A stretch of DNA of 64,000 nucleotides from positions 104,630 through 168,629 of the forward strand of contig DJJA01000006.1 in NCBI GenBank assembly GCA_002433895.1. Direction: 5' to 3'. Positions 2,876-39,934 of this stretch are shown piece after piece. The stretch is from Candidatus Gottesmanbacteria bacterium UBA6580 (GTDB taxonomy: Bacteria > Patescibacteriota > Microgenomatia > UBA10105 > UBA927). Within the stretch, counting starts at the first letter, position 1, and each line of letters begins with the position of its first letter. The position numbers were made by a program, and so were the translations under genes. Under the pieces are notes generated by a model. The model was given only the letters and a program-made list of their open reading frames with translations, ran no database searches and had not been told where the DNA came from.

Positions 2876-4228
2876 TCAGTGAACCGCGGGTGGTACTGAA
2901 TCGGCATGTTGCCGCTCGACGGAGTAAAACCGGATACGGTCTCCACGGAAAATAAGGTCTATTTCTGCAAGTGGTCCGTTACGGTGTTTCGCGATGCGGA
3001 GCTTCGTTGCAATCTGCTCGCCCCACATGCTTTGATCGGTTTCTTCACGGTACAAAAACATAACAACGTCAGCATCCTGTTCGATCGAGCCGGACTCCCG
3101 CAAATCTGATAGTTCAGGCACTTTATTGCCCCGCGCTTCGACCGCCCGGGAAAGTTGTGAACACGCAAGTACGGGAATACGGAGCTCGCGCGCGAGATTT
3201 TTCAGATTTTGGGAAATAACTGATACTTCCTGCACCCGGTTATCCAACTTCCGCCCCGGATCACAAAGCTGCAGGTAGTCAACGATAATGAGCTTTACCC
3301 CGTGCTCCACCTGAAGCCTTCGTGCTTTTGTGCGCATTTCGATGATATTCATACCGGGCGTGTCGTCAATAAAAAGCGGCGCTTCGGCAAGCTCACCCAT
3401 CGCGTCGGATAACTTGGTGAAATCATCGTCGGTAAGTTTACCGGTCTTGAGACGCCACGCGTCGATATCTGCCTGACTTACCAATAAACGGTCTACCAAT
3501 TCTTCCTTGCTCATTTCGAGTGAAAAGATACCGGTCGGTATTTTTTCTTTTACCGTGGCGTGCTGCGCCATGTTGAGGATCATCGCTGTTTTGCCGGTTC
3601 CCGGGCGGGCGGCAAGAATAATAAGGTTTGCGTCCTGCATACCGGCGAGTTTCGTATCCAACTCAGTAAAACCGGTGGGTACACCGCGAAGTCCCCCTGC
3701 CCGCTTATGTAACTCATCCAACCGGTCAAACGATGCCGCGAGCGCGTCTTTGATCGGGATAAAATCCCGCCGCGTGGTGGACTGGGCGATCGCGAATATT
3801 TCCATTTCGGCTTCGTTGACGATAGACTGAGAACCTCCTTCGTCCCGAAATGCCATCTCAGTTATTTTTGCCGCGGCCTCGACAAGCTTCCGTTTCGTCG
3901 CGTGCTCGACAATAATCCGCGCGTACTGCTCCGCGTGGGCACTCGTCGGCACGACGTTGACTAAATCAGATAAATATGCGGGTCCGCCGATATCTTTTAT
4001 CGCACCCTTTTGCTTTAGCTGAGCGGCCACCGTCACCACATCAATGGGCTCGTGTAATTCGTATAACTCCATCATGGATTCAAATACCAACGCGTTTGAC
4101 GGGGAATAAAAATGATGCGGACGCAAAAATTCCGCAACGTCAATCATCGTGTCTTTATCGATAAGTATCGCCCCGAGTACCGACTGTTCGGCGACATCAT
4201 CGTGTGGAGGAACTTTAGGACTCGTCAT
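2876..4228 (-). CDS. dnaB: replicative DNA helicase DnaB
   Basis: A 450-aa ORF with Walker A ARPGTGKTA, the DnaB N-terminal SVLGAIL motif and a RecA-like C-domain. It ends with a TGA stop. Confidence 0.95.
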   Translation of the reverse strand: MTSPKVPPHDDVAEQSVLGAILIDKDTMIDVAEFLRPHHFYSPSNALVFESMMELYELHEPIDVVTVAAQLKQKGAIKDIGGPAYLSDLVNVVPTSAHAEQYARIIVEHATKRKLVEAAAKITEMAFRDEGGSQSIVNEAEMEIFAIAQSTTRRDFIPIKDALAASFDRLDELHKRAGGLRGVPTGFTELDTKLAGMQDANLIILAARPGTGKTAMILNMAQHATVKEKIPTGIFSLEMSKEELVDRLLVSQADIDAWRLKTGKLTDDDFTKLSDAMGELAEAPLFIDDTPGMNIIEMRTKARRLQVEHGVKLIIVDYLQLCDPGRKLDNRVQEVSVISQNLKNLARELRIPVLACSQLSRAVEARGNKVPELSDLRESGSIEQDADVVMFLYREETDQSMWGEQIATKLRIAKHRNGPLAEIDLIFRGDRIRFYSVERQHADSVPPAVH

Positions 4229-4866
4229 GATGCTTGTAGTACGACTACTTGCTTTTCGGTAGGTAATTTATCTTTACTCACGGTTAATTTCGGAACCGGC
4301 ACGGCTTCTTCTTTCCCGATGTGCTTTAAGAACACTGAAACCGGAGCCAGGTCCTTGTTATAGGTATCGGTACCGTAATGCATCGGAATAATAATACGCG
4401 GGTCAATATCTGAAATAATTTGTGCTGCTTTTTCCGCGTCAATAGTATATACGCCGCCAACGGGAACAAACAGGACATCCACGCCATCGATCACATCAAC
4501 CTGAGCGGATGAAAGCACATGTCCGATATCACCCAAATGCGCGAACCGTACACCGTCCAGTTCAATGCGGTACATGGTATTACGGCCGCGCTCTTCCCCA
4601 TTTTTTTCATCATGAAATGACGAAACACCAATAACCGAAATACCTTTTATTTCATACTCACCCGGTCCTTGTACGATAAACGGCGAGCCACCAATGAGAT
4701 GTGCCGCATTGTGATCCGGATGTGCATGGGAGATCGTTACGATTTCAGCGTCAATATGCTTGGGGAATTTAATCCCCACCTGTTTTTCATCGTAGGGATC
4801 AGTGACGAGAGTTGCCTGTTTACCACGAAGTTTAAAACTCGCATGACCCAAAGGAAGTATTTCCAT
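4225..4866 (-). CDS. metallo-beta-lactamase-fold metal-dependent hydrolase (UPF0173-like)
   Basis: HAHPDH motif. There is a 4-nt ATGA overlap with dnaB. Confidence 0.7.
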   Translation of the reverse strand: MEILPLGHASFKLRGKQATLVTDPYDEKQVGIKFPKHIDAEIVTISHAHPDHNAAHLIGGSPFIVQGPGEYEIKGISVIGVSSFHDEKNGEERGRNTMYRIELDGVRFAHLGDIGHVLSSAQVDVIDGVDVLFVPVGGVYTIDAEKAAQIISDIDPRIIIPMHYGTDTYNKDLAPVSVFLKHIGKEEAVPVPKLTVSKDKLPTEKQVVVLQAS

Positions 4867-4989: not shown

Positions 4990-5445
4990 ATGAATAAAGA
5001 CGCAATTCTTGCGACAGTCATAGGGTTTGGTGTCGGGCTCATCATTGCAGCCTTGGTTTTTTTGGGACCAACCCTATTTAAAAACTTTCCGCAAATCCAC
5101 CTCCCTGATATCGGGGCAATGATTTCGAATTTCCAAAACGGCAACAATGCCATTAAACCCGCACCAACACCAAAGCCCGGTGATACACTCACCATCCAAA
5201 GCCCACTTCCTGACGCTATCGAGCCACAAAACGAAGCGCTTATCTCGGGGACCGCTGCGCCAAACGCATTAATCGTTATAGAAGGTGAAGCCACAGAAAA
5301 TGTCGTTGTCGCAAACGCATCCGGGTCCTTCGCCGGGAAAATAGCCCTTGGCGAAGGGAAAAATGAAATTCAGGTAACCAGCCATCTCAAGGACGTGACA
5401 CAGACACAGTCGGTGACGGTATATTACACGCCGGAAGATTTCTAA
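4990..5445 (+). CDS. hypothetical membrane-anchored protein
   Basis: N-terminal TM helix followed by a Pro/Thr linker and a beta-rich domain. No recognisable family. Confidence 0.4.
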   Translation: MNKDAILATVIGFGVGLIIAALVFLGPTLFKNFPQIHLPDIGAMISNFQNGNNAIKPAPTPKPGDTLTIQSPLPDAIEPQNEALISGTAAPNALIVIEGEATENVVVANASGSFAGKIALGEGKNEIQVTSHLKDVTQTQSVTVYYTPEDF

Positions 5446-5453
5446 ATAAACAT

Positions 5454-6248
5454 ATGAAAAAACAATCCTTACTCACCGGTCTTGCCATTCTTACACTCGC
5501 GGTACTTCCGGTAAACCACGTGGCCGCGCAGACAGCAACGCCGAGCGCAACCCCGACCGCCGCAAGCGCCCAGCTAGAAGAATTGAAAGTGCGCTTAGCC
5601 ACTAAAGTTGCGGAACTCAGGTCGGTCGTCAAACGCGCTATGTATGGCACCGTTAAGTCCGTGACGCTGACGTCCGCGACCGTTGAAACAAAAACAAAAG
5701 ACATAAAAATTGAACTTACCGATGACGTAACCATTTCCCAGGTGGTCGGCGGCAAGCGCGTCAACCTTGACGCCGAGGATCTGGCGGCGGACGACCCCAT
5801 CACCGTATTTGGTACCTATGATGAAACGCTTGACCTTCTCAAAGCGCAATATATATTTATTGAGAGCGCCACATCATATACCAGGATCGCCGGTATTGTC
5901 GTGGATGTAGACGATGAAGACTTTGTACTTACCGTCAACACATCTGAAGGAAAAACCATGCTTGTTGATATCGAAAAGACGACCAAAACCTCAGAATGGA
6001 CCCGTGAAAATGGTATTGCTAAAAGCGGATTTTCGAAACTTACCGTCGGAGACACTGTGCATATAACCGGCACCCCGGCAGCAAAAGAAGACAACCGTCT
6101 GTCCGCAGTACGGATACTTAATCTCGGTAACATCACGGGATCTGCTGGTACCCCAACGGCAACCACGGCAGTAACGCCTACGGCGTCTGCCTCTGCCACG
6201 CCCCGAGCGACTCCCCGCCCAACCGCGGTACCCACCGCCACACCATAA
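5454..6248 (+). CDS. secreted hypothetical protein with Thr/Pro-rich C-terminal tail
   Basis: Signal peptide MKKQSLLTGLAILTLAVLPVNHVAAQ. The C-terminus is a low-complexity TPTATP repeat. Confidence 0.5.
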   Translation: MKKQSLLTGLAILTLAVLPVNHVAAQTATPSATPTAASAQLEELKVRLATKVAELRSVVKRAMYGTVKSVTLTSATVETKTKDIKIELTDDVTISQVVGGKRVNLDAEDLAADDPITVFGTYDETLDLLKAQYIFIESATSYTRIAGIVVDVDDEDFVLTVNTSEGKTMLVDIEKTTKTSEWTRENGIAKSGFSKLTVGDTVHITGTPAAKEDNRLSAVRILNLGNITGSAGTPTATTAVTPTASASATPRATPRPTAVPTATP

Positions 6249-8574: not shown

Positions 8575-9782
8575 ACACCATCCAACCACTCAAAGGATTC
8601 CGTGATTTTTTGCCTGCAGAGGCCGCCAAACGCAAATGGCTCCGCGACAAACTCGCGGGCATTTTTGAATCCTGGGGGTTTGCGCCGCTCGAGACCCCAA
8701 CGCTAGAGCCACTCGAAATATTTGCGGGAGCCATCGGCGAGGACGAAAAGCTGTTTTTTAAATTCAAAGATCAGGGCGAACGGGATGTCGCGCTCCGCTA
8801 TGATCAGACGGTGCCTACCTGCCGTGTAGTGGCACAATACCAAAACCAACTCGCCTTCCCGTTTAAGCGGTACCAGATACAACCGGCATTCAGAGCCGAG
8901 AAGCCGCAAAAAGGCAGGTACCGGGAGTTTACCCAAGCGGACGCTGACATATTTGGTATAAAAACCCCGGATGCAGATGCCGAAGTCATCGCGCTATCGC
9001 TGGAAATCTACAAACAGCTCGGATTTAAAAAAGCACTCGTCCGCATCAACTCCCGTGCGCTTTTTCAAAACATGCCGTACGAAGCAATCGTTTCCATCGA
9101 TAAAATCAAAAAAATCGGTGATGACGGCGTGCTTTCTGAAATGGAGAAAAAAGGCATCAGCCCGGATAAAGCCCGCGAATATCTGTCGTATGTAAAAAAC
9201 CTCAAACCAAACGAGGAAATTGCATTTATCCTGAAGTACATAAAAAATTATGGATTTCCTGATGACTGGTATGCGTTTGACCCGACAATTGCCCGCTCAT
9301 TCTCCTACTCGATGGGGCCAATTTGGGAAATAGAAATACCCGATGCCGGATACAATATGTCGGTGCTGGGCGGTGAACGATACGACGGATTATTGGAAAA
9401 ATTTGCCGGCCGCGATATCGGCGGCACCGGGTTTGCGGTGGGTTTTGACCGCACACTCGAAGCTGCGGAAATCATGGGGCTCATCCCCGCGTTATCCGTA
9501 GCGGGACAAGTGCTCGTCACCATATTTTCCAAAGATGTATTACCCAACGCCCAGCAAATCGCGCAAACGCTGCGGATAAACGGTGTTGCCGCGGACTTAT
9601 ACCCTAACGCGGATAAACTGGAAAAACAGTTAAAGTACGCCGATAAAAACGCTATCCCCTACGTCGTTATCCAGGGGCCCGATGAAGCAACCCGCGGTAT
9701 GGTAAAACTCAAAAACATGAAAACCAAGGATCAAAAAGAAGTATCGCTTGCCGAGCTTCCAAAATTGTTCATAAACGATTGA
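8571..9782 (+). CDS. hisS: histidyl-tRNA synthetase
   Basis: Class II aaRS motifs (GFRDFLP, RYDQTVP, FRAEKPQKGRYREFTQ) and a C-terminal HisRS anticodon-binding domain. Confidence 0.85.
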   Translation: MNTIQPLKGFRDFLPAEAAKRKWLRDKLAGIFESWGFAPLETPTLEPLEIFAGAIGEDEKLFFKFKDQGERDVALRYDQTVPTCRVVAQYQNQLAFPFKRYQIQPAFRAEKPQKGRYREFTQADADIFGIKTPDADAEVIALSLEIYKQLGFKKALVRINSRALFQNMPYEAIVSIDKIKKIGDDGVLSEMEKKGISPDKAREYLSYVKNLKPNEEIAFILKYIKNYGFPDDWYAFDPTIARSFSYSMGPIWEIEIPDAGYNMSVLGGERYDGLLEKFAGRDIGGTGFAVGFDRTLEAAEIMGLIPALSVAGQVLVTIFSKDVLPNAQQIAQTLRINGVAADLYPNADKLEKQLKYADKNAIPYVVIQGPDEATRGMVKLKNMKTKDQKEVSLAELPKLFIND

Positions 9783-9797
9783 AGAAATTATACTGCC

Positions 9798-10715
9798 ATG
9801 AGTCGTAGAACCACTGCCGCGCTCTATCTCCTCCTCGTCTCGGTTATCTGGGGTGCAGCGAGTCCGGTCGTAAAAAACACCCTCCAATGGTTTGACCCAT
9901 GGCTGTTTCTCACCTACCGTTTTTTTGTAAGCGCGCTTATCGCATTTCCGTATCTTTCACTGACCGGGGTACAAATGCCCAAAAAACCAGCACACCTTTG
10001 GCTTGTGATGATGACTGGCTTCGTATCGGCACCACTGTCGCTTTTTCTCTTTTTCGAGGCGCTGGATAAAACCACGGCACTCTCAGGAAGCCTTATTACT
10101 GCCGCGGGGCCCCTCTTTCTTATTCTTGGCGGCGTATTGTTTTTCCGTGACCGTATCACACGCAACGAAAAAATCGGCATAGGCATCGCTCTCGCCGGCA
10201 CCATTCTTACGGTCATCGGGCCGCTTATCCTCAATGGCCATTCGAACACCCTGGGCAAACTTGAGGGAAATGGCCTCATGCTGCTTGCGGTCATCACCGA
10301 TATCATCGGCGCGCTTATGAGCAAAGAGGCGATGAAAAAGGGTATTCATGCCACGCTTGTTGCCCAAACCCAATTTATTCTGGGATTTGTGATCTTTTTA
10401 CCCGTCCTGTTCCTCCGTCAGCCGCCGGAAGTTGCATGGGCAGCGCTTGTTTCTGCCCCACTGCAGGCTCACGCCGGAGTACTTTATATGGCTGTGCTTT
10501 CCGGTACCGTCGCCTATACCATACGCAATATTGCCGTGAAAACAATAGAGGTTTCCGAATCCGCACTGTACCAATATCTACAGCCTTTGTGGGCGGCTAT
10601 TCTGGCTGTTTTGTGGTTAAAAGAAGCGATAACCCCATCCTATATCCTGGGTGGCGTGATTATCGCCGTCGGCGTCTTCATCGCAGAAAAGAAACAGAGA
10701 AAAAAATTAAAATAG
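9798..10715 (+). CDS. EamA/DMT-family transporter
   Basis: About ten TM helices in two EamA-like halves. Confidence 0.7.
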   Translation: MSRRTTAALYLLLVSVIWGAASPVVKNTLQWFDPWLFLTYRFFVSALIAFPYLSLTGVQMPKKPAHLWLVMMTGFVSAPLSLFLFFEALDKTTALSGSLITAAGPLFLILGGVLFFRDRITRNEKIGIGIALAGTILTVIGPLILNGHSNTLGKLEGNGLMLLAVITDIIGALMSKEAMKKGIHATLVAQTQFILGFVIFLPVLFLRQPPEVAWAALVSAPLQAHAGVLYMAVLSGTVAYTIRNIAVKTIEVSESALYQYLQPLWAAILAVLWLKEAITPSYILGGVIIAVGVFIAEKKQRKKLK

Positions 10716-15958: not shown

Positions 15959-16058
15959 GCTTCCTATCTTAAATTCGACTACACCCGCCCGCCATGCAAG
16001 CCGAGTTAGATGAGGCGTTGCGGGCAGGTCCCCGTAACTAACTTCCTATCTTAAATTC
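15959..16058. repeat. 17-bp direct repeat (CTTCCTATCTTAAATTC) flanking an 83-bp segment; duplicated 3' end of ychF
   Basis: Copies lie at 15959-15975 and 16042-16058. On the minus strand both read GAATTTAAGATAGGAAG followed by a stop, which is the last six codons of ychF (EFKIGS*). Confidence 0.8.
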
Positions 16059-17114
16059 TATAACATCTCCGTCCTGCACCAAATACTCTTTGCCCTCACT
16101 TCTCGCCTTGCCTGCTTCACGGGCTTTTTTCCACCCGCCCAACGAAACAAAGTCCGCAAACGACACCGTATCGGCTTTGATAAACTTTTTTTCAAAGTCT
16201 GTGTGTATCACCCCCGCGGCAGCCGGCGCCTTCATACCCTTTTCTATCGTCCAGGCACGTGATTCCAGCTCACCCGTCGTCAAAAATGATATAAGCCCCA
16301 AGGTTTCATACGCCGTGCGGATAAGTAAATCTAATCCTGATGACGCAACACCCAGAGACGCGAGATAATCTTTTTGCTCATCCGGTGTCATCGCCGCAAG
16401 TTCTGATTCCGTCTGGGCACATATATACACAATAGGAGAAAGGTTCGACTGCGGTGGATCCGCAAGTTGTGTTTCCGATACATTACCCACATACACAATG
16501 GGCTTCATCGTCAGCAACTGCAACGGACGGATAAGTTCCCGTTCGTCGGGATCAGTGAGTACTTCACGCGCGCGTTTACCCCCGTCCATTTCTTTGATCA
16601 AGCGCTTCGCTAATGCATATCTCGCCCGATCTTCTTTGGTCGCGTTCATTTTGGGTTCCTGTTGTTTGCCCAATGTCTGTAAGTCAGCAAGGACTAATTC
16701 TGTCTCCACAATCGCGCGGTCACGCTCCGCGTCTATTCCCCCTTCGGTATGCACGATATTGGAATCGGAAAAAAAGCGCAGGACATTACAGATAATATTT
16801 ACTTCCCGGATATGCGCGAGGAATTTGTTGCCCAGCCCTTCGCCTTCAGACGCACCTTTCACGAGCCCCGCGATATCGACAAACTCGACGGTGGCGGGGC
16901 GAAGCGGCGGAAGCTTTTCCAGTTTATCTTCTACTTTGGTGATTGCCGCAAGCTTCGCCAACCGCTCATCCGGCACGGGAACAACACCGACATTGGGCTC
17001 GATCGTCGCAAACGGATAGTTTGCGGCAAACGCGACCTGTTTCTTGAGCAGTGCATTAAACAGCGTGCTTTTCCCTGCATTGGGAAGGCCGACTATACCT
17101 ACTTTTAAATTCAT
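16038..17114 (-). CDS. ychF: ribosome-binding ATPase YchF (Obg-family GTPase)
   Basis: G1 GLPNAGKST, NxxD, TGS domain. 358 aa. Confidence 0.95.
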   Translation of the reverse strand: MNLKVGIVGLPNAGKSTLFNALLKKQVAFAANYPFATIEPNVGVVPVPDERLAKLAAITKVEDKLEKLPPLRPATVEFVDIAGLVKGASEGEGLGNKFLAHIREVNIICNVLRFFSDSNIVHTEGGIDAERDRAIVETELVLADLQTLGKQQEPKMNATKEDRARYALAKRLIKEMDGGKRAREVLTDPDERELIRPLQLLTMKPIVYVGNVSETQLADPPQSNLSPIVYICAQTESELAAMTPDEQKDYLASLGVASSGLDLLIRTAYETLGLISFLTTGELESRAWTIEKGMKAPAAAGVIHTDFEKKFIKADTVSFADFVSLGGWKKAREAGKARSEGKEYLVQDGDVIEFKIGS

Positions 17115-17138
17115 GAAAATGATTGTATCACGAAGCTA
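17101..17138. repeat. about 35-bp imperfect direct repeat copy A (ychF start region)
   Basis: ACTTTTAAATTCATGAAAATGATTGTATCACG. A second copy lies at 18193-18227 (ACTTTTAAATTCATGCCAAGATTGTATCACG). Confidence 0.8.
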
Positions 17139-17169
17139 GTCTATACAACATGAACAATGAAAGACGCCA

Positions 17170-17964
17170 TTAATCCTGTAAAGTTCTCACAAAACTCTTT
17201 CCAAGTTCTCCCATGATTCTATGTAGTGAGTTAGTATGTGGTAGTACTCTTTTTGTATATGGTGAGCCGTCATTTGATTTCTGTACGCCTAACAACTGTG
17301 CCTTTACACTATCATCCACTTTCCTCCACCCAAATCCCTCACTCCACCATCCACCTCTAGCTTTTGGATCAGGATCTAACGCTCCAGCTAGATAATCATG
17401 CTGAGCAACTTGTGTTTTAAATTGATCGGTCATAAAAGCAAAAAAATCTACGTGCTGAATTCCAACTGCTTTAAAAAGCGTTCGCATCCTCTCCCTTGTA
17501 GGTGGATTTTTCCTGTTCGTTTGCCAGCTTCGTGCATAATCATCGATAACTAATATTCTATCTTTAGGGTCTAAATTACTTCTCTTTACAATTTCATTAA
17601 CCCTCTTCTCAATAAGCTTTTTCCTTCTTCGCTCCTGTATCCCAAAATACATATTGGAGGATGTTAAGTTGTCATTTCTTTTCTTCTGTGTAAGCCAAGC
17701 GTTATACTGAGCTTGATTAAAGGTATCCCAATCTTCCTTAAGAAATGAGACATGAGGAAATTTTAATCCATATTCTTTCGCGATCAACGGACGCGAAGCC
17801 CAATACATTGGTCGCCCACTATCCTCAGGAAAAATTATGCATTTTGGCATATCAGCTTTTCTTAAAAGAAAATAATCATGAAGCTGTCTAAGCGCCTTGT
17901 GAATAACCTCCGTGTCAGAATGCGGTAACTGAAAGGCTTCTGCTTTCTGTAAGTCGCTTGTCAT
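17170..17964 (-). CDS. hypothetical protein in lower-GC accessory insertion
   Basis: A 264-aa ORF in a region AT-richer than its surroundings. It contains KDRILVIDDYARSWQT, a basic residue, four hydrophobics and DD, which loosely resembles the PRPP-binding loop of type I phosphoribosyltransferases. No firm family assignment. Confidence 0.5.
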   Translation of the reverse strand: MTSDLQKAEAFQLPHSDTEVIHKALRQLHDYFLLRKADMPKCIIFPEDSGRPMYWASRPLIAKEYGLKFPHVSFLKEDWDTFNQAQYNAWLTQKKRNDNLTSSNMYFGIQERRRKKLIEKRVNEIVKRSNLDPKDRILVIDDYARSWQTNRKNPPTRERMRTLFKAVGIQHVDFFAFMTDQFKTQVAQHDYLAGALDPDPKARGGWWSEGFGWRKVDDSVKAQLLGVQKSNDGSPYTKRVLPHTNSLHRIMGELGKSFVRTLQD

Positions 17965-18192
17965 ATATATTCAGTGTTAAATATTATAATAAATACCACA
18001 CATCAGATACAAACGCAGCGAAACACTCTGCTGCGCCGGTTTTACCCCAAATCAATTGACCATAAAGGCTCTCCCCTTACACGATTCTTGTCCATACATC
18101 ACCTTGAATAATTAATTGCATTTTTTTGTCGAGGTGGAAGCTTAAACCTGAAGCTAAAAACAAAAGTTGGAGCGTTGTAACGTACGTTCCAA

Positions 18193-18227
18193 CTTTTAAA
18201 TTCATGCCAAGATTGTATCACGGGGAA
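18193..18227. repeat. about 35-bp imperfect direct repeat copy B (pseudo-start of ychF)
   Basis: Duplicates the ychF ATG plus the first 5 codons (MNLKVG) and about 20 nt of upstream sequence. It continues into a 42-codon frame unrelated to ychF. Confidence 0.8.
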
Positions 18228-18281
18228 TAAAAAGATTGTAATAGTGCGCTATTGAAAGCATTAACACCGGTAACCGAGAAT

Positions 18282-19226
18282 TTACCTTGATTGTTTTGAG
18301 GCCTCAAATTGCAGCGGTTCTCTTCTCAAGCTGGTAAATCGGAAAATATCACCCTTTCTGATTATCGTTTCACCGAAGGGAAGCCAGTTTTCACCCATAA
18401 TATGATCTTTTTGCCCATCTTTTCGCAACCAGCGCCCAACGCCCATTCGCGCTAAACCTGCAAGCGGTTTTATCCGACTAAACTCACCTGTGTTCTGATC
18501 TATACCTGTCACTTCACACCTACCACAAGGCTTTGGTTGGTGCACCTCAACACCGTTGATCGATCCGGCTGAATAATCATGAATACGGCGGAATGGAACA
18601 CCCCCAAGTAGCACTTGATACCGAAACCTATTGGCGTCCACCGGGACCCCTATGGTGGCAAATACCCGCTCCGCATCATCCGAGGCAATAGCATGGATGG
18701 GATAACCATCTTGGGCCCGAAGTGGATTTGTGTTTGCTTCAAAGTTTTGCCGTGACATGCGACTCCATGGACCGCTCGTTCTGGCAACTTTAACCTGCCG
18801 CTTCAGCTGATCGCTCAGCCATTCTGAGATTATGGGGACTTCGACTGCTTTACCGCGGTATTCCCAAACCTGTACCGGAATGACGTTCGACAAATCATCG
18901 TCTGCCTTATGAGGCACTTGCACTTCACTCCCGTTAAAACGGAAAAATAACCTATCACCCCTTTGCTCCGGCCTGACCAAAGCTAGCTGTGGAGTGCCTG
19001 CTACAAACATATTCTTCGCAGGGTCAACCTGAACTCTTTGGGTGAAAAAATTGTGATCTCCGTGGTGATCAGTCGTCGCATCTACCGCCACAAGAAAATG
19101 ATCTTGAATATCGCCACCGACCGTTTCGAGGCCGGATTTTTTCATCGAAGCTTCTTCCAACTTCAATGGGCTACCACCTTTGAGGGGTTGAATCTGTAAA
19201 TCAAGCACTTGTGCCTCAATCATCTG
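18282..19226 (-). CDS. MOSC-domain protein (YcbX-like)
   Basis: MOSC N-terminal beta-barrel followed by a MOSC domain with the conserved Cys (HQPKPCGRC). Confidence 0.6.
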   Translation of the reverse strand, partial: QMIEAQVLDLQIQPLKGGSPLKLEEASMKKSGLETVGGDIQDHFLVAVDATTDHHGDHNFFTQRVQVDPAKNMFVAGTPQLALVRPEQRGDRLFFRFNGSEVQVPHKADDDLSNVIPVQVWEYRGKAVEVPIISEWLSDQLKRQVKVARTSGPWSRMSRQNFEANTNPLRAQDGYPIHAIASDDAERVFATIGVPVDANRFRYQVLLGGVPFRRIHDYSAGSINGVEVHQPKPCGRCEVTGIDQNTGEFSRIKPLAGLARMGVGRWLRKDGQKDHIMGENWLPFGETIIRKGDIFRFTSLRREPLQFEASKQSR

Positions 19227-19323
19227 GTGTATTGTAGTATGGATTACATTAAAACACAATTGAACGGATCGGTGAAATATCTCAACAGTACATATCCTTA
19301 ACAGGGGACGTCATAAGCCAGGG

Positions 19324-19803
19324 CTATTTAATGTTATTTTCACTTACTAAGGATTTCAACGCATGCCCGAGATTTTCCGTATTTTTTAACTCATCTGCAG
19401 GAATCCATTTGTATGCCGTGTGTTCATTACTTAGGCGGACTGGGATATCATCAACAATACGCATTGCGACAGTATATCTATCAACTTTCTCATTCATGGA
19501 TGTCGTCACTTGCTGACGGGCAATAAACCGAAGCGTTTCGTTTCCTGTGGGTAACCAACCAATTTCCTCGCGCAATTCTCGACACAACTCTGGGTGTAAC
19601 GCTCCGCCGCCAGTGATTGAAGCAATATCGATATTTTTTTCTACTCTTCCGCCGGGTATATCCCAATACGCTTCTCCGTCACCATATACCTCAGGATTCC
19701 GCTTTAACAAAAGCACCTCATCTCGAGAGTTGAAAATTAACACCTTAACTCCTATTTGAGAAGGTTTAATTTTATATTCTTTGAACTGTTCATTTTCAGT
19801 CAT
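19324..19803 (-). CDS. NUDIX hydrolase
   Basis: Nudix box GGRVEKNIDIASITGGGALHPELCRELREEIG. Confidence 0.85.
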   Translation of the reverse strand: MTENEQFKEYKIKPSQIGVKVLIFNSRDEVLLLKRNPEVYGDGEAYWDIPGGRVEKNIDIASITGGGALHPELCRELREEIGWLPTGNETLRFIARQQVTTSMNEKVDRYTVAMRIVDDIPVRLSNEHTAYKWIPADELKNTENLGHALKSLVSENNIK

Positions 19804-19900
19804 ACTTTGCAGATCAAATATTTTTTTACTTTTCCCAATTCGTAATAAAGAATTATAGCATGTGTAAGAGCCGCACCGGTGGTATACTTAGAGCTTCCTT

Positions 19901-21523
19901 ATGCTTATTACTGCCCTCCAATTATCGAAAACTATCGGCGCCAAAACGCTGTTTACCGATCTGGATTTCCATATCGCGCCAAACGAAAAAGTAGCGCTCA
20001 TCGGCCGCAACGGTCAGGGCAAGTCCACACTTTTACATATCATCGGCGGGTTGGACACCGACTTTACGGGCTCACTGACCCGCAAGAAAAATCTCCGTAC
20101 AGTGCTTACCAAACAGGAACACTTAACCGACAATACGCTTTCGGCACTCGACTATATCCTCAAAAGTGTCCCCCATTATATCGAATACGAAAAAGTATTG
20201 ACCGGATTTGAAAAAGAACACCACACCGATATGCACCGCTACACCGAGGCAGTCGATTACTTTTCGGAACACGGCTACTACTATATAAAAGACCTGATTA
20301 TGGGAACCCTTAACGATTTCCAGATAACAGACGAGAAAGCCAATCACCCGCTTGTGACGCTGTCCGGCGGCGAAAAACGGTTTGTGGAACTTACCCGCAT
20401 GATGTATTCGCAGGCGGAGCTCTTACTCATCGACGAACCGACCAATCACATGGACTATGTGGGGAAAGAACAATTTATTTCCTGGATGCTCACGGTAGAG
20501 GCAGGAGTGCTGGTCGTCACCCATGACCGCGATGTATTAAAACACGTCGATCGTATTATCGAACTTAAAGATCAGCATATCTCCTCGTACAAAGGAAATT
20601 ATGAACAGTACCTCAAGCTCAATACCGCGCAAACCACGAGCTCGGTTGTGAACTACCAGAACCAGATGAAAAAGCTTGCCGATGCCAAAAAGCGGGTGGA
20701 ATGGGGCTTACAAATGCGTGCCAAAAGCAAAGCATGGAAGGTGCGCTACGATCACTGGGTCAAAGATTACGAAAAGATTAAATCCGAAACCGTGAAGCCA
20801 TCGTTTTGGATAGATCAAGATTCTGTCGCCGATCTCGACAAAGCCGTATCGGATTCGTACCACAAGTTCAAAGAGAAAAATGTGCGCATCAGTGTCCCCA
20901 CGAGCAAAGAAAAAATAAGTCAGCTGGTGGGTGTAAAAAATTTGTCGCTTGGCTATAACGGTCCCCTGTTTGCCGATATCACGTTTGCTTTTGGCAGCAC
21001 CCAGCGGCTATTTATTAAAGGAAGAAACGGCGCGGGCAAAAGCACGCTCGTCAAAACGGTCATCTCCCGCTACCACGGCGAAACCCCGCAGGCAACCATA
21101 TTTGAAGGGGAAATCAAACTCGCGTCAAATTTACGTATCGGGCAGTATAACCAAGAGCTTGACCCCATCTATCTCGAACAGACATTGGAGCAGGCAATAA
21201 ATAATGTATACGCGAGCCTCAATATCCCCATTGATGTAGGGAAAGTAAAAAGCACGATGTCCCAATATCTCTTTGATCCCGTCGTGGACGCGAGGCAAAA
21301 AATTATTGACCTGTCCGGAGGACAAAAAGCGCGGTTTCAACTGATCAAAATGTTTGCCAACAAACCCAATCTCCTTATCTTGGATGAGCCGACCAACCAC
21401 TTGGATTTACCGTCTATCGAAGAGCTGGAAAACGCGCTGCAAGACTATGACGGCGGCATACTGTATATCTCCCACGACACAAGCTTTATTTCCAAACTCG
21501 GCGGCGAAATCGTAGAAATCTAA
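19901..21523 (+). CDS. ABC-F family ATPase (tandem ABC domains, no TM domain)
   Basis: Two Walker A motifs (GRNGQGKST, GRNGAGKST) and two LSGG signature motifs. Confidence 0.85.
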   Translation: MLITALQLSKTIGAKTLFTDLDFHIAPNEKVALIGRNGQGKSTLLHIIGGLDTDFTGSLTRKKNLRTVLTKQEHLTDNTLSALDYILKSVPHYIEYEKVLTGFEKEHHTDMHRYTEAVDYFSEHGYYYIKDLIMGTLNDFQITDEKANHPLVTLSGGEKRFVELTRMMYSQAELLLIDEPTNHMDYVGKEQFISWMLTVEAGVLVVTHDRDVLKHVDRIIELKDQHISSYKGNYEQYLKLNTAQTTSSVVNYQNQMKKLADAKKRVEWGLQMRAKSKAWKVRYDHWVKDYEKIKSETVKPSFWIDQDSVADLDKAVSDSYHKFKEKNVRISVPTSKEKISQLVGVKNLSLGYNGPLFADITFAFGSTQRLFIKGRNGAGKSTLVKTVISRYHGETPQATIFEGEIKLASNLRIGQYNQELDPIYLEQTLEQAINNVYASLNIPIDVGKVKSTMSQYLFDPVVDARQKIIDLSGGQKARFQLIKMFANKPNLLILDEPTNHLDLPSIEELENALQDYDGGILYISHDTSFISKLGGEIVEI

Positions 21524-21566
21524 AACCCCCGCAATCCGATTGCTCTTCCTCTATGTTCGCTCTACA

Positions 21567-22520
21567 ATGGATATAAGGAAGTCTATGCTGCCCCCCGATC
21601 AGATACTTGCTGACATCAAAGCCCTCAAAATCCAGGGAGCGACCAATGTCGCGCTCGCCGTCCTTGACGCACTTAGTAAGGCAATCGAAGAGCAACCCGA
21701 CATTTCCTGTTTTGAATTAACCAAACTCGGCGAGATACTTGCCTATGCCCGCCCCACGGAGCCGCTGGCGCAAAATGCCGTGCGTTATATAAGCGCGGGG
21801 TGTACGGAAGAAGCCACCAAGCGAATAGCCGCCTACAAAACGTATATAGAAAAAGGAAAGCTTACTATCCCCCAAATTGGCGTGCCGCTCTTGAGTGATG
21901 GCGGGACATATCTTACGCTTTGCCATTCCTCCACCACCGTAAAGTTATTTACGGCAGCGCGAGCGAAAGGTGCGTATTTTTCGCTTTATGTTGCAGAAAC
22001 CCGACCCCGTTTCCAGGGGCGCATTACCGCCAAAGAACTGCTTGACGCGGGTTTTGATGACGTGACGATGACGGTCGATGACGTGGCCGTGTCACTTATC
22101 GAAGGGCGGATCGGCAAAATCGATGCCGTATTTATCGGCGCTGACCTTATTAACGACAAAGGGTTTGTCAACAAAATCGGTTCGCTCGCCGTCACTGCCG
22201 CCGCCAAACGGAAACATATCCCGGTCTATGTCCTTACCACGCTATTAAAATACGACCCCACCCCGTTTTCGCCCGCGATGATCGAAACCCGGAACAGCGA
22301 GGAAATTTGGAAGGAAGCTCCGGACAATCTGAAGTTTTACTCACCCGCGTTTGATTACGTATCATACATGAGTAACGTCCACGTGGTGTGCGAAGATGGC
22401 GTGATACCCGGTAAGCAGGTAAAAAAAGCGACAAATAAACACTATCCTTTTGTATTCGAAACAGGGTATGATAAATATCTGCACTATGGCAAATCGGTAT
22501 ATCCACTATCTCGCCCTTAA
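21567..22520 (+). CDS. eIF-2B alpha/beta/delta-like ribose-1,5-bisphosphate isomerase (or MTR-1-P isomerase)
   Basis: eIF2B-related family fold. It lies immediately upstream of a form II/III RuBisCO and overlaps it by about 35 nt. Confidence 0.7.
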   Translation: MDIRKSMLPPDQILADIKALKIQGATNVALAVLDALSKAIEEQPDISCFELTKLGEILAYARPTEPLAQNAVRYISAGCTEEATKRIAAYKTYIEKGKLTIPQIGVPLLSDGGTYLTLCHSSTTVKLFTAARAKGAYFSLYVAETRPRFQGRITAKELLDAGFDDVTMTVDDVAVSLIEGRIGKIDAVFIGADLINDKGFVNKIGSLAVTAAAKRKHIPVYVLTTLLKYDPTPFSPAMIETRNSEEIWKEAPDNLKFYSPAFDYVSYMSNVHVVCEDGVIPGKQVKKATNKHYPFVFETGYDKYLHYGKSVYPLSRP

Positions 22521-23724
22521 CGAAGAGGTCGATAAGACGAAACACATCATCGCCACGTTTACGCTACATGTAGAAGGCGAACCGTTTGATAAAACTGCCG
22601 GAGGGGTCGCGGCGGAATCCTCGGTCGGCACATGGACAGACATCGGACTCGAGGAAAAAGCGATCTGGGACAAACTCCATGCTAAGGTCATCGACATGGA
22701 CGAAAGCACAGGACGCATCGTGGTCGCGTATCCTTTGGATTTATTTGAGGCAGGCAGCATCCCTCAGCTCCTCTCCTCTATCACGGGAAACGTTTTCGGA
22801 CTAAAAGAAATCGTCGGGCTGCGGCTCGAAGACCTCGATTTTCCGGAAGTATTTGTGAAATCCTTTCCGGGACCCGCGCTGGGTATCGAGGGCATCCGTG
22901 CACTCACCGGAGTGAAAGACGCACCGCTTACGGGCTCCATCATCAAACCCAAACTGGGGCTCACCAGTGTCCGCCACGCGGAAGCGTGTATGGAAGTATG
23001 GGACGGCGGGGTGAACCTCGTCAAAGACGATGAAAACCTCGCCAACATGGCGTTTGATAATTTCTACACCCGGGTCGATGAAGTAACCCGACGGATGAAA
23101 GAAAAAAATTATCTGGAAATCGGGAAAGCAAAAATCCACGCTTTCAATATCACCGCAAGCTACGAAGAAATGATGAAACGCGCAAACTACGTACGTGACA
23201 GCGGTGCAAACTGTCTGATGATCGATGTATTAACCGCGGGCTTTGCCGCCACCCAAGGGATACGGAATAGAAACTACGGACTGATGATCCACGGGCACCG
23301 CGCCATGCACGCGGCATTCACCCGCTCCAAAGTATTCGGCATCTCGATGCTCGTGATCGCCAAACTCGCGAGACTAGCCGGCATCGATTCGTTCCACACG
23401 GGTACCGTGGTCGGCAAAATGGAGGGCGGGAAAGAAGAAGTAGTCACCATTAATAATTTCCTGCGCAGTGAGTGGTATGGCTTGAAAACCACACTCCCCA
23501 CGGCGTCGGGCGGACTGCACCCGGGACACATCCCTGATCTTGTTTCCATCCTCGGCAAAGACCTGCTTATGAACTTCGGCGGCGGCATCCACGGGCATCC
23601 TGACGGAACCCCCGCAGGAGCACGGGCAATCGTCCAGTCACTTAACGCGACGTTAGCAGGTATTCCCCTGTCAGAAGCCAAAGACAGCCCCGAACTGCAG
23701 CGGGCACTGGAAAAGTGGCAATAA
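22486..23724 (+). CDS. rbcL: RuBisCO large subunit, form II/III
   Basis: Catalytic motifs GLKTTLPTASGGLHPGHIPDLVSILGKDLLMNFGGGIHGHPDGTPAGARA and KPKLGL. No small subunit gene is nearby. Start taken at MANRYIHY. Confidence 0.9.
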   Translation: MANRYIHYLALNEEVDKTKHIIATFTLHVEGEPFDKTAGGVAAESSVGTWTDIGLEEKAIWDKLHAKVIDMDESTGRIVVAYPLDLFEAGSIPQLLSSITGNVFGLKEIVGLRLEDLDFPEVFVKSFPGPALGIEGIRALTGVKDAPLTGSIIKPKLGLTSVRHAEACMEVWDGGVNLVKDDENLANMAFDNFYTRVDEVTRRMKEKNYLEIGKAKIHAFNITASYEEMMKRANYVRDSGANCLMIDVLTAGFAATQGIRNRNYGLMIHGHRAMHAAFTRSKVFGISMLVIAKLARLAGIDSFHTGTVVGKMEGGKEEVVTINNFLRSEWYGLKTTLPTASGGLHPGHIPDLVSILGKDLLMNFGGGIHGHPDGTPAGARAIVQSLNATLAGIPLSEAKDSPELQRALEKWQ

Positions 23725-38297: not shown

Positions 38298-39212
38298 TTA
38301 CTTTGTTTGCTGCATGATTGCATCAGCAAGAAGCGAAGAAACAGAAACAACGTCTAGTGTGGCAAAGTGTTTGGTAGTTGGCACGGCAATCGTGTCAGTC
38401 ACGATCACTTTATCAATAACGCTCTGAGAAAGTGTTTCTGCTGAGTGACCCGCAAGCACGGCATGCGTGGCCAAAAAATATACACTTGTAGCACCTTTTT
38501 CTTTGACGAACTTACTCGTCGTCACGGCGGTGGCACCGGTATTTATAATATCATCAAATATGATAACTGCTTTCCCATCCACCGCGCCTTCGATACCATC
38601 TACGGTAACCTCGCCAGTCGCGGTATCACGATGTTTCATAAGATAAACGGTGGATAATCCAGCTTTTTCGGCAAACCGCTCAGACCGGGAAACACCGCCT
38701 TTATCAGGTGAAACGACTACCGCGTTTTCTGAGGTAAAATTGCGCTCGGAGGAAAAGAGCGTCTCCCGGAGCAGTTCATGGGCAGATATCTCCATCACCG
38801 GTATGCGGAAAAATGGCAATACATTTTCGGAATGAAGCTCCACAGAAATTACCGCATCAAACCCAGCTGCCTCGATAAATTTCGCGACTAACTGCGATGA
38901 AATCGCCTCGCCTTTTCGAAATGCTTTGTCCTGCTTGCTATACCCCATCCACGGGATAACCGCGGTTACTTTCGTCGCCCCCAGATTTTTAATCGCAGAC
39001 CCCAATAAGCAAAGCTCGACCAAATGTTGATCCGCAACTTCGGAAAGTGACTGTACGACAAACACCTCTTGCCCCGAAACATCTTCACGAACAAATACCC
39101 GGCATTCATTGTCGATAAAACGGGTGATCTCCACGTCACCCAATGGCATATCGAGTAGTTTTGCTATGCGACCTGCGAGTGGTTCATTTGATGTGCCGGA
39201 AAAAATCTTCAT
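38298..39212 (-). CDS. prs: ribose-phosphate pyrophosphokinase
   Basis: PRPP synthetase motifs. Start at MKIFSGTSN. The track ORF over-extends upstream. Confidence 0.9.
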   Translation of the reverse strand: MKIFSGTSNEPLAGRIAKLLDMPLGDVEITRFIDNECRVFVREDVSGQEVFVVQSLSEVADQHLVELCLLGSAIKNLGATKVTAVIPWMGYSKQDKAFRKGEAISSQLVAKFIEAAGFDAVISVELHSENVLPFFRIPVMEISAHELLRETLFSSERNFTSENAVVVSPDKGGVSRSERFAEKAGLSTVYLMKHRDTATGEVTVDGIEGAVDGKAVIIFDDIINTGATAVTTSKFVKEKGATSVYFLATHAVLAGHSAETLSQSVIDKVIVTDTIAVPTTKHFATLDVVSVSSLLADAIMQQTK

Positions 39213-39934
39213 TATTGTAATCCTAACAAGGCGAGCAGCTGTCCGTCTATGAGAGAGTCTATATGCATATCGGGAGGAAATTGGGCAAAGTCTTCTTTGA
39301 CCACTCCCCACCCGGTCGCCACAATTACTGCGGTTGCCCCGATAACACGCGCGCACTCCGAGTCCCGAACCGTATCACCGATAATAATAATATCGCTCGG
39401 TGTAAACGTTTGACCGAAAAAAAGCTCAGCCTTGGCCGGAATAAGTCTGGCGAGGTCATTGCGCTCATCAGCCTCATGCCCGTATATACCAAACGCGATA
39501 TCCGGCAATCCGGTTGATCGAAGTTTCCAGCTCGCTGAAGGCCCAAGATTTCCGGTAAGCACCCCTTCCGACAAATGATCTGCCGAGATTACTTTCTCCA
39601 CCAATGTTTTTGCTTCGGGTATGACCGTATACGAAGGCCCGCCGTCTTTTATACTTTCCAGATATTCGGCGAATGCGTCACCGATATCACCTATTTTATC
39701 CAGAAATGCGTCACGGGAAATCCCAAAATCTTTTATGAACTCCCACAGGATATACCGGTCACCGGCGCCGTTAAAGTTTTTCGATTTCCAACGCTCCATG
39801 GTAAATGCTCCTATGTCGACTCCAAATACCTTTTTCACTGCGTACGGAAACCGTTGAAGATTATCCACCATCCGCTCTGCACGGATAAGTGTGCCGTCGA
39901 TATCAAATAACACCAGCTTTTTCTTTTTATTCAT
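39212..39934 (-). CDS. HAD-superfamily hydrolase
   Basis: DIDGTL motif I plus motifs II and III. Confidence 0.75.
   Translation of the reverse strand: MNKKKKLVLFDIDGTLIRAERMVDNLQRFPYAVKKVFGVDIGAFTMERWKSKNFNGAGDRYILWEFIKDFGISRDAFLDKIGDIGDAFAEYLESIKDGGPSYTVIPEAKTLVEKVISADHLSEGVLTGNLGPSASWKLRSTGLPDIAFGIYGHEADERNDLARLIPAKAELFFGQTFTPSDIIIIGDTVRDSECARVIGATAVIVATGWGVVKEDFAQFPPDMHIDSLIDGQLLALLGLQ

Follow-up and report, generated by a model that had tools for sequence, protein, structure and literature searches.

We analysed a 64,000-nt stretch of DNA (the window) from Candidatus Gottesmanbacteria bacterium UBA6580 (GenBank assembly GCA_002433895.1, contig DJJA01000006.1, positions 104,630 to 168,629), a member of the candidate phyla radiation (CPR, or Patescibacteria), and we describe here a small cassette at the start of its ychF gene, which encodes a conserved GTPase; the cassette carries a single open reading frame (ORF) of 264 amino acids (aa), called ORF264. 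CPR bacteria have tiny genomes, few recognisable mobile elements, and a dependence on nucleotide salvage, and the ways in which they gain genes are poorly understood. The region from ychF to a divergently oriented ABC-F gene contains the following features, listed with window coordinates, strand, and the basis of each assignment.

16038-17114, minus strand: ychF, the target gene, 358 aa (Pfam MMR_HSR1 and YchF-GTPase_C).
17098-17132, minus strand: proximal working module, read as cassette-borne (−10 box, ATG, and codons 2-6).
17116-17169, minus strand: cassette 3' spacer of 54 nt, from the ORF264 stop to the putatively imported ychF promoter (sequence).
17170-17964, minus strand: ORF264, the cargo gene, 264 aa (predicted divergent type I phosphoribosyltransferase fold).
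17965-18151, minus strand: cassette leader with a TATAAT box and a second small hairpin (sequence and fold).
18152-18197, minus strand: terminator-like hairpin, then TTTTGTTTTT (inverted repeat and RNA fold).
18187-18222, minus strand: distal pseudo-start psi3, the former ychF promoter, ATG, and codons 2-6, now orphaned (repeat match and match to the relative L005).
18282-19223, minus strand: gene for a MOSC-domain protein, 313 aa in public gene calls (Pfam MOSC and MOSC_N).
19324-19803, minus strand: NUDIX hydrolase gene, an older insertion at the same site (Pfam NUDIX).
19837-19862, minus strand: oldest pseudo-start psi1, CATGCTATAATTCTTTATTACGAATT (22 of 26 nt shared with the working start of the relative L185).
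19901-21523, plus strand: ABC-F ATPase gene, divergent from ychF (ABC_tran domains).

The start of ychF is present twice. On the minus strand, both copies have the layout CGTGATACAATC-[spacer]-CATGAATTTAAAAGT; the proximal copy (17132-17101) is the real ychF start, with its ATG at 17114-17112, and the distal copy (18222-18192) carries an orphaned ATG at 18205-18203. A preliminary description of this DNA, made from the letters alone, had reported such a repeat, and the repeat is indeed there, but its coordinates become 17101-17132 and 18192-18222, and the spacers differ by 1 nt in length as well as by substitutions (ATTTT in the proximal copy versus TTGG in the distal one), such that every position differs. 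Codons 5-6 are also alike, with two synonymous differences (GTA GGT versus GTT GGA), and extend the similarity to 17098 and 18189; the full proximal 35 nt (17132-17098) read CGTGATACAATC-ATTTT-CATGAATTTAAAAGT-AGG and the full distal copy (18222-18189) reads CGTGATACAATC-TTGG-CATGAATTTAAAAGT-TGG. The pair scores 37.9 bits (E ∼1e-5 for the 64-kb window, both strands), compared with a maximum of 23.7 bits for a reversed-query control, and each exact block occurs exactly two times in the window. The last ychF codons (window 16038-16060 and L185:9057-9072; EFKIGS, GAATTTAAAATTGGAA in L185) resemble the first (MNLKVG, ATGAATTTAAAAGTTGGAA), a likeness that gives weak spurious matches in repeat searches. 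The 264-aa ORF at 17170-17964 and the 317-nt non-coding stretch at 17965-18281 were both described correctly at the outset. The 42-codon frame headed by the distal pseudo-start (18077-18205), described as a pseudo-ychF frame, does exist as an ORF, but it is a scar and not a gene, as is a further copy upstream that begins with ACG (see below).

The DNA between the two copies has a GC content of 0.39 compared with 0.49 for the contig. ORF264 itself, with a GC of 0.391 (z = −3.8) and a third-codon-position GC (GC3) of 0.325 (z = −3.5), is the lowest of the 68 ORFs in the window, in agreement with the lower GC that had been noted by eye. Ten fetched contigs encoding an identical YchF protein, one of them from NCBI assembly GCA_002343365.1, come from several samples and assemblers and agree with the window wherever they overlap positions 15,999-19,400 (nine at 100% identity and L004 at 99.94%, with one mismatch); this agreement shows a genuine arrangement that is fixed in the species, not an assembly artefact. 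Contigs L180, L004, and L181, from different assemblies, all start exactly at window position 17707, inside ORF264, and L182 starts at 17569; the starts at 17707 may reflect lower coverage of the low-GC cassette or a strain variant diverging at that point.

The closest relatives lack the cassette. L183, whose YchF is 96% identical, has the gene order RuBisCO, e2b2, ABC-F, NUDIX, ychF and aligns with window positions 23718-19331 at 84.8% and with 17116-16036 at 88.5% nucleotide identity; between these blocks, 46 nt in L183 stand against 2,214 nt in the window (the MOSC gene, the distal copy, and the ORF264 cassette). The L183 homology restarts at 17116, 2 nt before the ychF ATG, and the ychF promoter of L183 (GGTATAAT-ACTCCTC-ATG) is unlike both window copies. 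ABC-F directly adjoins ychF in L185 (YchF 92% identical), and unrelated small ORFs lie upstream of ychF in L005 (YchF 90% identical); ORF264 is found in none of these three ychF upstream regions. The distal copy equals the working ychF promoter and start of L005 at 27 of 27 nt, spacer included. Taken together, these comparisons indicate that the distal copy once served as the start of ychF and that the proximal one, now in use and with another spacer, came in with the inserted DNA; this accounts for a difference between the copies that takes the form of a block change instead of scattered point mutations. The 5' part of ychF is 0.81-0.86 identical to that of L005 with a normal GC3, and from about codon 6 it resembles the rest of the gene; the body of ychF from there onward thus appears to be native.

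The absence of the cassette from the closest relatives, the restart of homology at the ATG, and the deviant composition support an insertion of foreign DNA by recombination at the 5' end of ychF, as the preliminary description had proposed. Its suggestion of a simple target duplication has to be abandoned, since the copies differ by a block change, the distal one equals the L005 start, and the proximal one appears to have come with the cassette. An insertion sequence or transposon was also rejected: a transposase is missing, the two ends form no inverted repeat, and target duplication would not yield the block change between the 31-35-nt flanking repeats. We also considered an ancestral arrangement in which ORF264, and with it the MOSC gene, always stood upstream of ychF and the relatives lost both by deletion between the repeats. 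Direct repeats could drive such deletions, and there is no empty site within the species, yet ORF264 is the strongest compositional outlier in the window, the three nearest relatives all lack it and are each arranged differently, the L183 promoter matches neither window copy and so is no simple deletion product, and the pseudo-starts are insertion scars whatever came later. We therefore regard an ancestral arrangement as highly improbable, and a foreign insertion is retained.

An ABC-F gene, 70% identical, is found upstream of ychF in L108 too, and ABC-F is the conserved outer boundary of the accretion zone. Beyond it, the e2b2 gene (ribose-1,5-bisphosphate isomerase, IF-2B family; window 21540-22520) is 48% identical to L005:3773-4687, whereas the adjacent RuBisCO is 96% and YchF 90% identical to those of L005; L183 is alike throughout (∼85% nucleotide identity), so the e2b2 allele was apparently replaced on the L005 side. 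On the other side of ychF, L185 has a PMT_2 glycosyltransferase-family gene (9172-10584) between ychF and S6, in contrast to the short ychF-S6 spacer of the window and L183, indicating that the 3' side of ychF is also variable.

The repeated block has the properties of a promoter. Its first 12 nt hold an extended −10 element, TG-A-TACAAT, ending 6-7 nt before the ATG; in the proximal module, the extended −10 box TGATACAAT occupies 17130-17122 and is followed by a 7-nt spacer and the ATG. Neither window copy has a Shine-Dalgarno sequence between the −10 element and the ATG. Many other genes of the window share this geometry, and 19 of 26 inspected CPR ychF starts possess TGnTAnAAT 6-9 nt ahead of the ATG and lack a Shine-Dalgarno sequence. 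On account of the −10 consensus and its spacing, the block is best read as a putative leaderless promoter together with the first five or six codons of ychF. The palindrome that had been noticed at the distal junction was recovered as a hairpin with 14-nt arms (18197-18184 and 18175-18162) that are 93% complementary. It begins 8 nt after the orphaned ATG, has the sequence AAAAGT in common with the repeat, folds with −17.2 kcal/mol (z = −3.2), and is followed by UUUUGUUUUU. We read it as a terminator-like hairpin behind the orphaned start, where a psi3 transcript should, by prediction, end after ∼45 nt. The cassette leader has a TATAAT box (17988-17983) at 18 nt upstream of the ORF264 ATG, as well as another small hairpin (∼18036-18014) with TTTGT behind it. 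Rfam revealed no structured RNA in the leader at E ≤ 1, and a match to RF01953 (13.2 bits, E 0.65) was disregarded; it lies within ORF264 on the minus strand (17298-17368). No terminator is visible in the 54-nt spacer at 17116-17169, so that read-through from ORF264 into ychF is possible. The cassette leader, the cassette 3' end, and the MOSC DNA showed no similarity to any of the fetched loci.

The remaining upstream genes point to earlier events at the same position. The window aligns with L185 across ABC-F, the adjoining intergenic region, and the first 7 nt of the L185 ychF gene, up to window position 19837. Here the window contains psi1, CATGCTATAATTCTTTATTACGAATT, which is identical to the working start of L185 (CATGGTATAATTCGGTATTATGAATT) at 22 of 26 positions and has its ATG mutated to ACG (19843-19841). 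The neighbouring NUDIX gene, with a GC of 0.41 (z = −3.1), encodes a protein 67% identical to the L183 NUDIX protein and has no counterpart in L185. The psi1 scar, followed by a NUDIX gene that is shared with L183 and missing from L185, shows that NUDIX entered at the ychF start at an earlier time; MOSC and ORF264 arrived afterwards and nearer to ychF. The MOSC gene is not found at this position in L183, L185, or L005 and is part of the 2.2-kb excess of the window over L183; an exact look-up of its protein yielded no record, and it may have arrived in an event of its own or together with ORF264. Its start, TACAAT-ACACCAG-ATGA (window ∼19223), agrees at 13 of 17 positions with the ychF start of L183, TATAAT-ACTCCTC-ATGA (L183:7985-8003). 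This non-significant likeness (shuffle test p = 0.27) might be a remnant of a displaced start or mere promoter consensus. Overall, the genes have accreted serially at the ychF start. The single insertion event of the preliminary description thus stands as an insertion but becomes one of a series, with NUDIX earlier and other CPR lineages affected at the same site.

We scanned ∼150 ychF loci with blastn-short for a second, upstream copy of their own start. Reversed queries reached at most 26.9 bits, and two loci, L098 (36.3 bits) and L088 (34.7 bits), exceeded this control. L088 (YchF 60% identical) has three ychF starts with ATGs at 4401, 5254, and 6001, the last being the real one. The first interval (850 nt) contains a MazE/MazF pair, and the second (750 nt) contains a small antitoxin-like ORF and a YafQ/RelE-type toxin. 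Both cassettes open directly after ...GGAATA with the same CACAATTCACAAT...TTACAATTCAAGTT... and stay alike for ∼90 nt; the middle start has different codons (ATGTTAAGTATAGGAATA, MLSIGI). Two cassettes with identical junctions suggest a defined recombination site rather than random joining, and we consider this the strongest argument for such a site. In L098 (YchF 54% identical), a pseudo-start lies 4.9 kb upstream of ychF and bounds a 4.9-kb island. It reads ACG AAT TTA AGT ATT GGT GTC GTG, versus ATG AAT CTA TCA ATT GGT ATA GTC for the real start, and encodes NLSIGVV; the ATG is again mutated to ACG, and the serine codon belongs to a different family (AGT versus TCA), so that the two copies derive from different ychF alleles. 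In total, at least five pseudo-starts are present across three lineages. A GGAA shared at the left ends of the cassettes (psi1 and psi3 of the window, both L088 cassettes, and L098) was not used as evidence, being largely explained by Gly-Ile codons.

Both of these loci have further contents. Upstream of the toxin-antitoxin cassettes, L088:469-4400 holds at least five further small co-oriented genes; the ORFs of this array comprise 152 aa, 233 aa (methyltransferase-like by eye), 224 aa, 128 aa, and 157 aa (cupredoxin-like by eye), along with a 248-aa ORF that has no Pfam match and a glyoxalase-family protein (Pfam). Each array gene is followed by a repeated element of ∼27-44 nt, TAAATTCTAACATCC...CCTCGGAGC...TTAGCCT, which is also present at 5195-5230 and 5948-5975 and has near-exact copies only within that array; most of the genes have a TGnTATAAT box 6-8 nt before the ATG. 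This region looks like a longer cassette array adjoining ychF, with a second type of boundary that is not attC-like. The L098 island includes an ORF resembling an IS30-type transposase (3577-4587; Pfam HTH_38 and HTH_23 only, the DDE part by eye) and a CheR-type methyltransferase, and an ORF6N-domain gene lies just outside the pseudo-start.

From these observations we propose, with a probability of roughly 55%, that integrase-less cassettes enter ychF at codons 5-7 in a Campbell-style and probably site-specific manner, that is, by a single crossover between circular or circularisable DNA and the chromosome that would leave one hybrid site on each side. The newest such cassette, horizontally acquired and ∼1.09 kb long, would carry on the gene strand the terminator-like hairpin, the leader with its TATAAT box, ORF264, and a module mimicking the ychF 5' end (extended −10 promoter, 7-nt spacer, ATG, and codons 2-6), and the crossover would fall within the shared CATGAATTTAAAAGT(NGG). 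The imported module would now drive ychF, whose mRNA would probably be leaderless, and the former promoter and start persist as a pseudo-start whose transcript would be stopped at the hairpin. In the suggested order of events, NUDIX was the earliest arrival, with psi1 as its trace, MOSC was the next, and ORF264 the last, with the older genes pushed outward. Excision would create a chromosomal junction reading ...CGTGATACAATC[TTGG or ATTTT]CATGAATTTAAAAGTAGGTATAGTCGG with MOSC-side flanks and a circle junction reading ...GATACAATCATTTTCATGAATTTAAAAGTTGGAACGTACG. Cassettes at the same codons in two other CPR lineages, together with the L088 junctions, suggest a site-specific recombinase; as no recombinase gene was found nearby, this enzyme would be encoded elsewhere and act in trans. 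Pfam searches of 40 further window ORFs (at least 151 aa) and the records over ∼12.3-24.4 kb revealed no recombinase or mobile-element gene, and a crude search for catalytic motifs detected no recombinase in the window, L088, L098, L183, L185, or L005.

Several findings weigh against this proposal. Neither a recombinase nor a circular form was observed. The window cassettes (NUDIX, MOSC, and ORF264) have no conserved end sequence in common with each other or with the L088 cassettes, and with a single integrase common ends would be expected. The pattern was found in only three lineages among the ∼150 loci, and all fetched contigs with an identical YchF are alike where they overlap, leaving no empty site within the species. 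No significant pseudo-start is present upstream of MOSC, between it and NUDIX (p = 0.27). The 12-nt promoter block resembles the general promoter consensus of these genomes, and the unambiguous duplication is only the 15-19 nt from the ATG onward. Finally, a simple terminator scan made no call at the hairpin because of one internal mismatch in the stem.

The main rival dispenses with a dedicated recombinase. A foreign CPR gene with an adjoining ychF promoter and start would have recombined through RecA on 15-31 nt, or by homology-facilitated illegitimate recombination, with its far end joined at the AAAAGT microhomology of the hairpin and ychF codons 4-5; recurrence would stem from the conservation of the ychF 5' end together with selection in favour of inserts that leave ychF expressed. 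Distant CPR bacteria do share a conserved ychF promoter block and first codons (e.g., ATGAATTTAAAAGT in L087 and TGATACAATC in L085, L106, and L019), so a donor module could pair with a foreign ychF, and genes of the ORF264 family lie one or two genes upstream of S6-SSB-S18 in other CPR genomes, making a donor of the order ORF264-ychF-S6-SSB-S18 conceivable. Such capture would also account for the missing common ends, and it agrees with the 6-nt microhomology in the hairpin stem at the left junction and with the window scans, which found no integrase. It does not explain the scars: a linear double crossover leaves no pseudo-start, yet there are five or more. Nor does it explain why the two unrelated cassettes of L088 share the exact same junction and ∼90 nt of adjoining sequence, which points to a defined site. 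The right junction falls in the first 20 nt of ychF despite hundreds of nt of homology further in. Moreover, a length of 15-31 nt is at or under the usual minimum for efficient RecA recombination. On balance, we judge recombinase-free capture to be unlikely, though it deserves to be taken seriously.

The cassette could alternatively be the stump of a larger integrative element (a prophage, a satellite, or an integrative and conjugative or mobilizable element) that had its own integrase and underwent internal deletion, leaving the attachment (att) sites and one cargo gene. Decay of an element can leave att-flanked remnants without an integrase, in Firmicutes and Actinobacteria ychF or the region upstream of it is a target of integrase-encoding elements, and the 4.9-kb island of L098 occupies the same site. 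The window cassette, however, is compact and orderly, made up of a hairpin, a promoter, a single intact gene, and a replacement start, with no pseudogene debris or phage-like sequence; those of L088, at 750-850 nt, are also complete units of one operon each, and it is unlikely that decay would have ended in such tidy units time after time in several lineages. A self-encoded integrative element in its present form was rejected because 17116-18191 holds only ORF264, with its predicted phosphoribosyltransferase fold and no PHROG match. We consider the stump explanation improbable, less likely than recombinase-free capture, as is the ancestral arrangement, and site-specific insertion of integrase-less cassettes remains our preferred reading.

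The cargo protein was characterised by profile and structure comparisons. ORF264 has no Pfam, PHROG, PADLOC, or NCBIfam match above threshold; it does not match PF00156, and TIGR01744 was reached with E = 0.14 and 11.8 bits, compared with a cut-off of 164. A search of 5.8 billion proteins gave two matches, its own fragment and one 37%-identical protein in another context, and a profile search of 1.8 billion representatives gave 106 relatives. The alignment of 43 members features the motifs FPETSARPL, ILVIDDYxxxGxxT, GFxYR, and GVxK. Four of the 43 match PF00156 (Pribosyltran) weakly (best 3.5e-4), and in the PDB the family profile matches OPRT (1e-4), HGPRT, and numerous APRTs, with the match at the loop for phosphoribosyl pyrophosphate (PRPP). 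An AlphaFold2 model of ORF264 (predicted local distance difference test, pLDDT, 88.8; predicted template modelling score 0.87) agrees with this assignment; Foldseek retrieved 8a0m, the PRPP-dependent ribofuranosyltransferase part of Bcs3, as the top match, then 7shg, and then dozens of HGPRTs, with probabilities of ∼1.0 and template modelling scores of 0.32-0.51. ORF264 is thus predicted to have a phosphoribosyltransferase (PRTase) fold and to belong to an uncharacterised, unnamed, and CPR-restricted family, and the initial guess of a PRTase-like protein is supported at the fold level. Two other leads were set aside: a match to the Holliday-junction resolvase NtMOC1 (GWWSxGFG, E = 0.3, from a two-sequence profile) was dropped because the deeper profile and the model indicate a PRTase fold, and a first structure model from two sequences (pLDDT 59) was not used.

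With the type I PRTases (HGPRT, OPRT, and APRT) and the ribofuranosyltransferases (the Bcs3 CriT domain and 7shg), ORF264 shares the fold and the hydrophobic strand-DD element of the PRPP loop, and its family has the HGPRT-like G-[FY]-x-Y-R motif. It differs from known PRTases in its low identity (9-13%) and in a long helical insertion (residues 84-128). A typical PRPP loop has four hydrophobic and two acidic residues, then small residues that include Gly and Thr. The family consensus of the PRPP loop is ILVIDDYxxxGxxT, with Asp141 conserved in at least 90% of the members, and the loop of ORF264 itself, ILVIDDYARSWQTNRKNPPT, has no Gly and a 6-residue insertion. As the loop is altered in both ORF264 and its closest homologue, catalysis is uncertain and the protein may be no transferase. 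The most likely ligand of ORF264 would be PRPP or a different 5-phosphoribosyl compound, and the protein would take part in nucleotide or ribose-phosphate metabolism. Nucleotide-salvage functions abound in the window, which also contains a PRPP synthetase gene (38298-39356), a nucleoside 2-deoxyribosyltransferase-thymidylate kinase domain fusion (60287-61420), and, a few kb from the cassette, the AMP-salvage genes for a form III-type RuBisCO and e2b2 (22450-23724); a metabolic role of this kind is plausible.

The homologues are unnamed CPR proteins from genomes of 32-42% GC. In L165 (6001-6870), L167 (4382-5251), and L169 (2308-3165), which are genomes of the Paceibacteria/Nomurabacteria type, the family gene lies between MetRS and TatD, otherwise a widespread gene pair, and upstream of S6-SSB-S18, sometimes beside a DUF559 endonuclease-like gene. 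ORF264 too ends up upstream of an S6-SSB-S18 cluster in the window. The low-GC CPR genomes and the housekeeping synteny fit a low-GC CPR donor and speak against a role in defence. Such a role had been raised as a speculation and finds no support here: the best PADLOC match was 11.5 bits (PDC-M54A; hmmscan E = 0.0064, a single short stretch) and was treated as noise, PHROGs yielded nothing for ORF264, and the neighbours in the window are housekeeping genes. The nearest homologue, P0002 in L001, has no convincing flanking repeats, and neither the cassette nor its att pattern was found in viral contigs.

A broader reading, which we put forward tentatively and hold with less confidence than the insertion model itself, is that CPR bacteria may possess an undescribed cassette-capture system with the first 5-9 codons of ychF as its attachment site. 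Its small integrase-less cassettes may each bring a portable leaderless promoter-ATG-codons module that rebuilds ychF; their cargo may include toxin-antitoxin pairs, NUDIX proteins, and PRTase-like enzymes, and capture after capture may form integron-like arrays in which all genes point the same way, punctuated by decaying pseudo-starts. The recombinase could be encoded elsewhere, perhaps as a host enzyme. If this is true, a fixed landing site at a conserved gene start, combined with one-operon cassettes that restore the gene they enter, would provide a simple and traceable route of gene gain, with the pseudo-starts serving as a built-in record of the order of capture. The duplicated ychF promoter and start would furnish a search signature for accessory genes, and perhaps for the recombinase, in thousands of metagenome-assembled genomes. 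In addition, ORF264 points to a CPR-specific family with a PRTase fold, encoded here near form III RuBisCO and ribose-1,5-bisphosphate isomerase and in the same window as PRPP synthetase.

Various known systems resemble the ychF-start units in part. Elements that bring a replacement 5' end, so that the target gene stays functional, have reportedly been described by Hochhut and Waldor in 1999 and by Farrugia and co-workers in 2015. Such elements are 20-100 kb long and encode their own tyrosine integrase and excisionase, whereas the units at the ychF start measure 0.75-1.1 kb, consist of one gene or operon with no recombinase, and are stacked in series. Integron arrays share the small one-gene or toxin-antitoxin cassettes, their common orientation, and the placement of the newest cassette next to a fixed attachment point. 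They differ in that here no intI was found in the window scans and there is neither attI nor attC hairpins with complementary R''/R' boxes; furthermore, the window cassettes have their own promoters, and attachment takes place within a protein-coding gene, the start of which is restored with every insertion. An integron was accordingly rejected: there was no Phage_integrase-type match (Pfam on the 40 window ORFs; records over 12.3-24.4 kb), and the motif scan was negative. By inspection, the window hairpin has GTT...AAC, which reverses the order of the attC boxes (RYYYAAC for R'', GTTRRRY for R'), and its place is the 5' end of the cassette, whereas attC sites stand at the 3' end; the repeated elements at the 3' ends of the L088 genes have no complementary R' box.

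Further parallels are found among att-flanked units that have no recombinase gene and for which the enzyme is thought to act in trans, namely cis-mobilizable elements (CIMEs), products of tandem accretion, and Xer-dependent pdif modules, of which toxin-antitoxin cargo is typical. CIMEs derive from integrative and conjugative elements at tRNA genes or the 3' ends of genes, and pdif modules have 28-nt XerC/XerD sites on plasmids. The window cassette is CIME-like in that direct att-like repeats (17098-17132 and 18187-18222) flank a single cargo gene with no recombination or transfer genes. A dif/Xer interpretation was rejected, as no convincing dif-like site was seen by eye at this locus. The same target region is used in other phyla by the Streptococcus pneumoniae satellite prophage PhiBM6001.4, which lies upstream of ychF between 26-bp att sites that differ at 4 nt, and by pipolins with large serine recombinases, which use ychF (PMC10383233, PMC11551731). 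The short, imperfect repeats are of similar length to those described here. These elements encode integrases together with replication or packaging functions, unlike the window cassette, and, as far as the two papers describe the insertions, replacement of the ychF promoter and start is not reported. Recurring in three CPR lineages with no integrase found nearby, the ychF-start units would represent a new form of site-specific integrative cassette and could be a distinct capture system.

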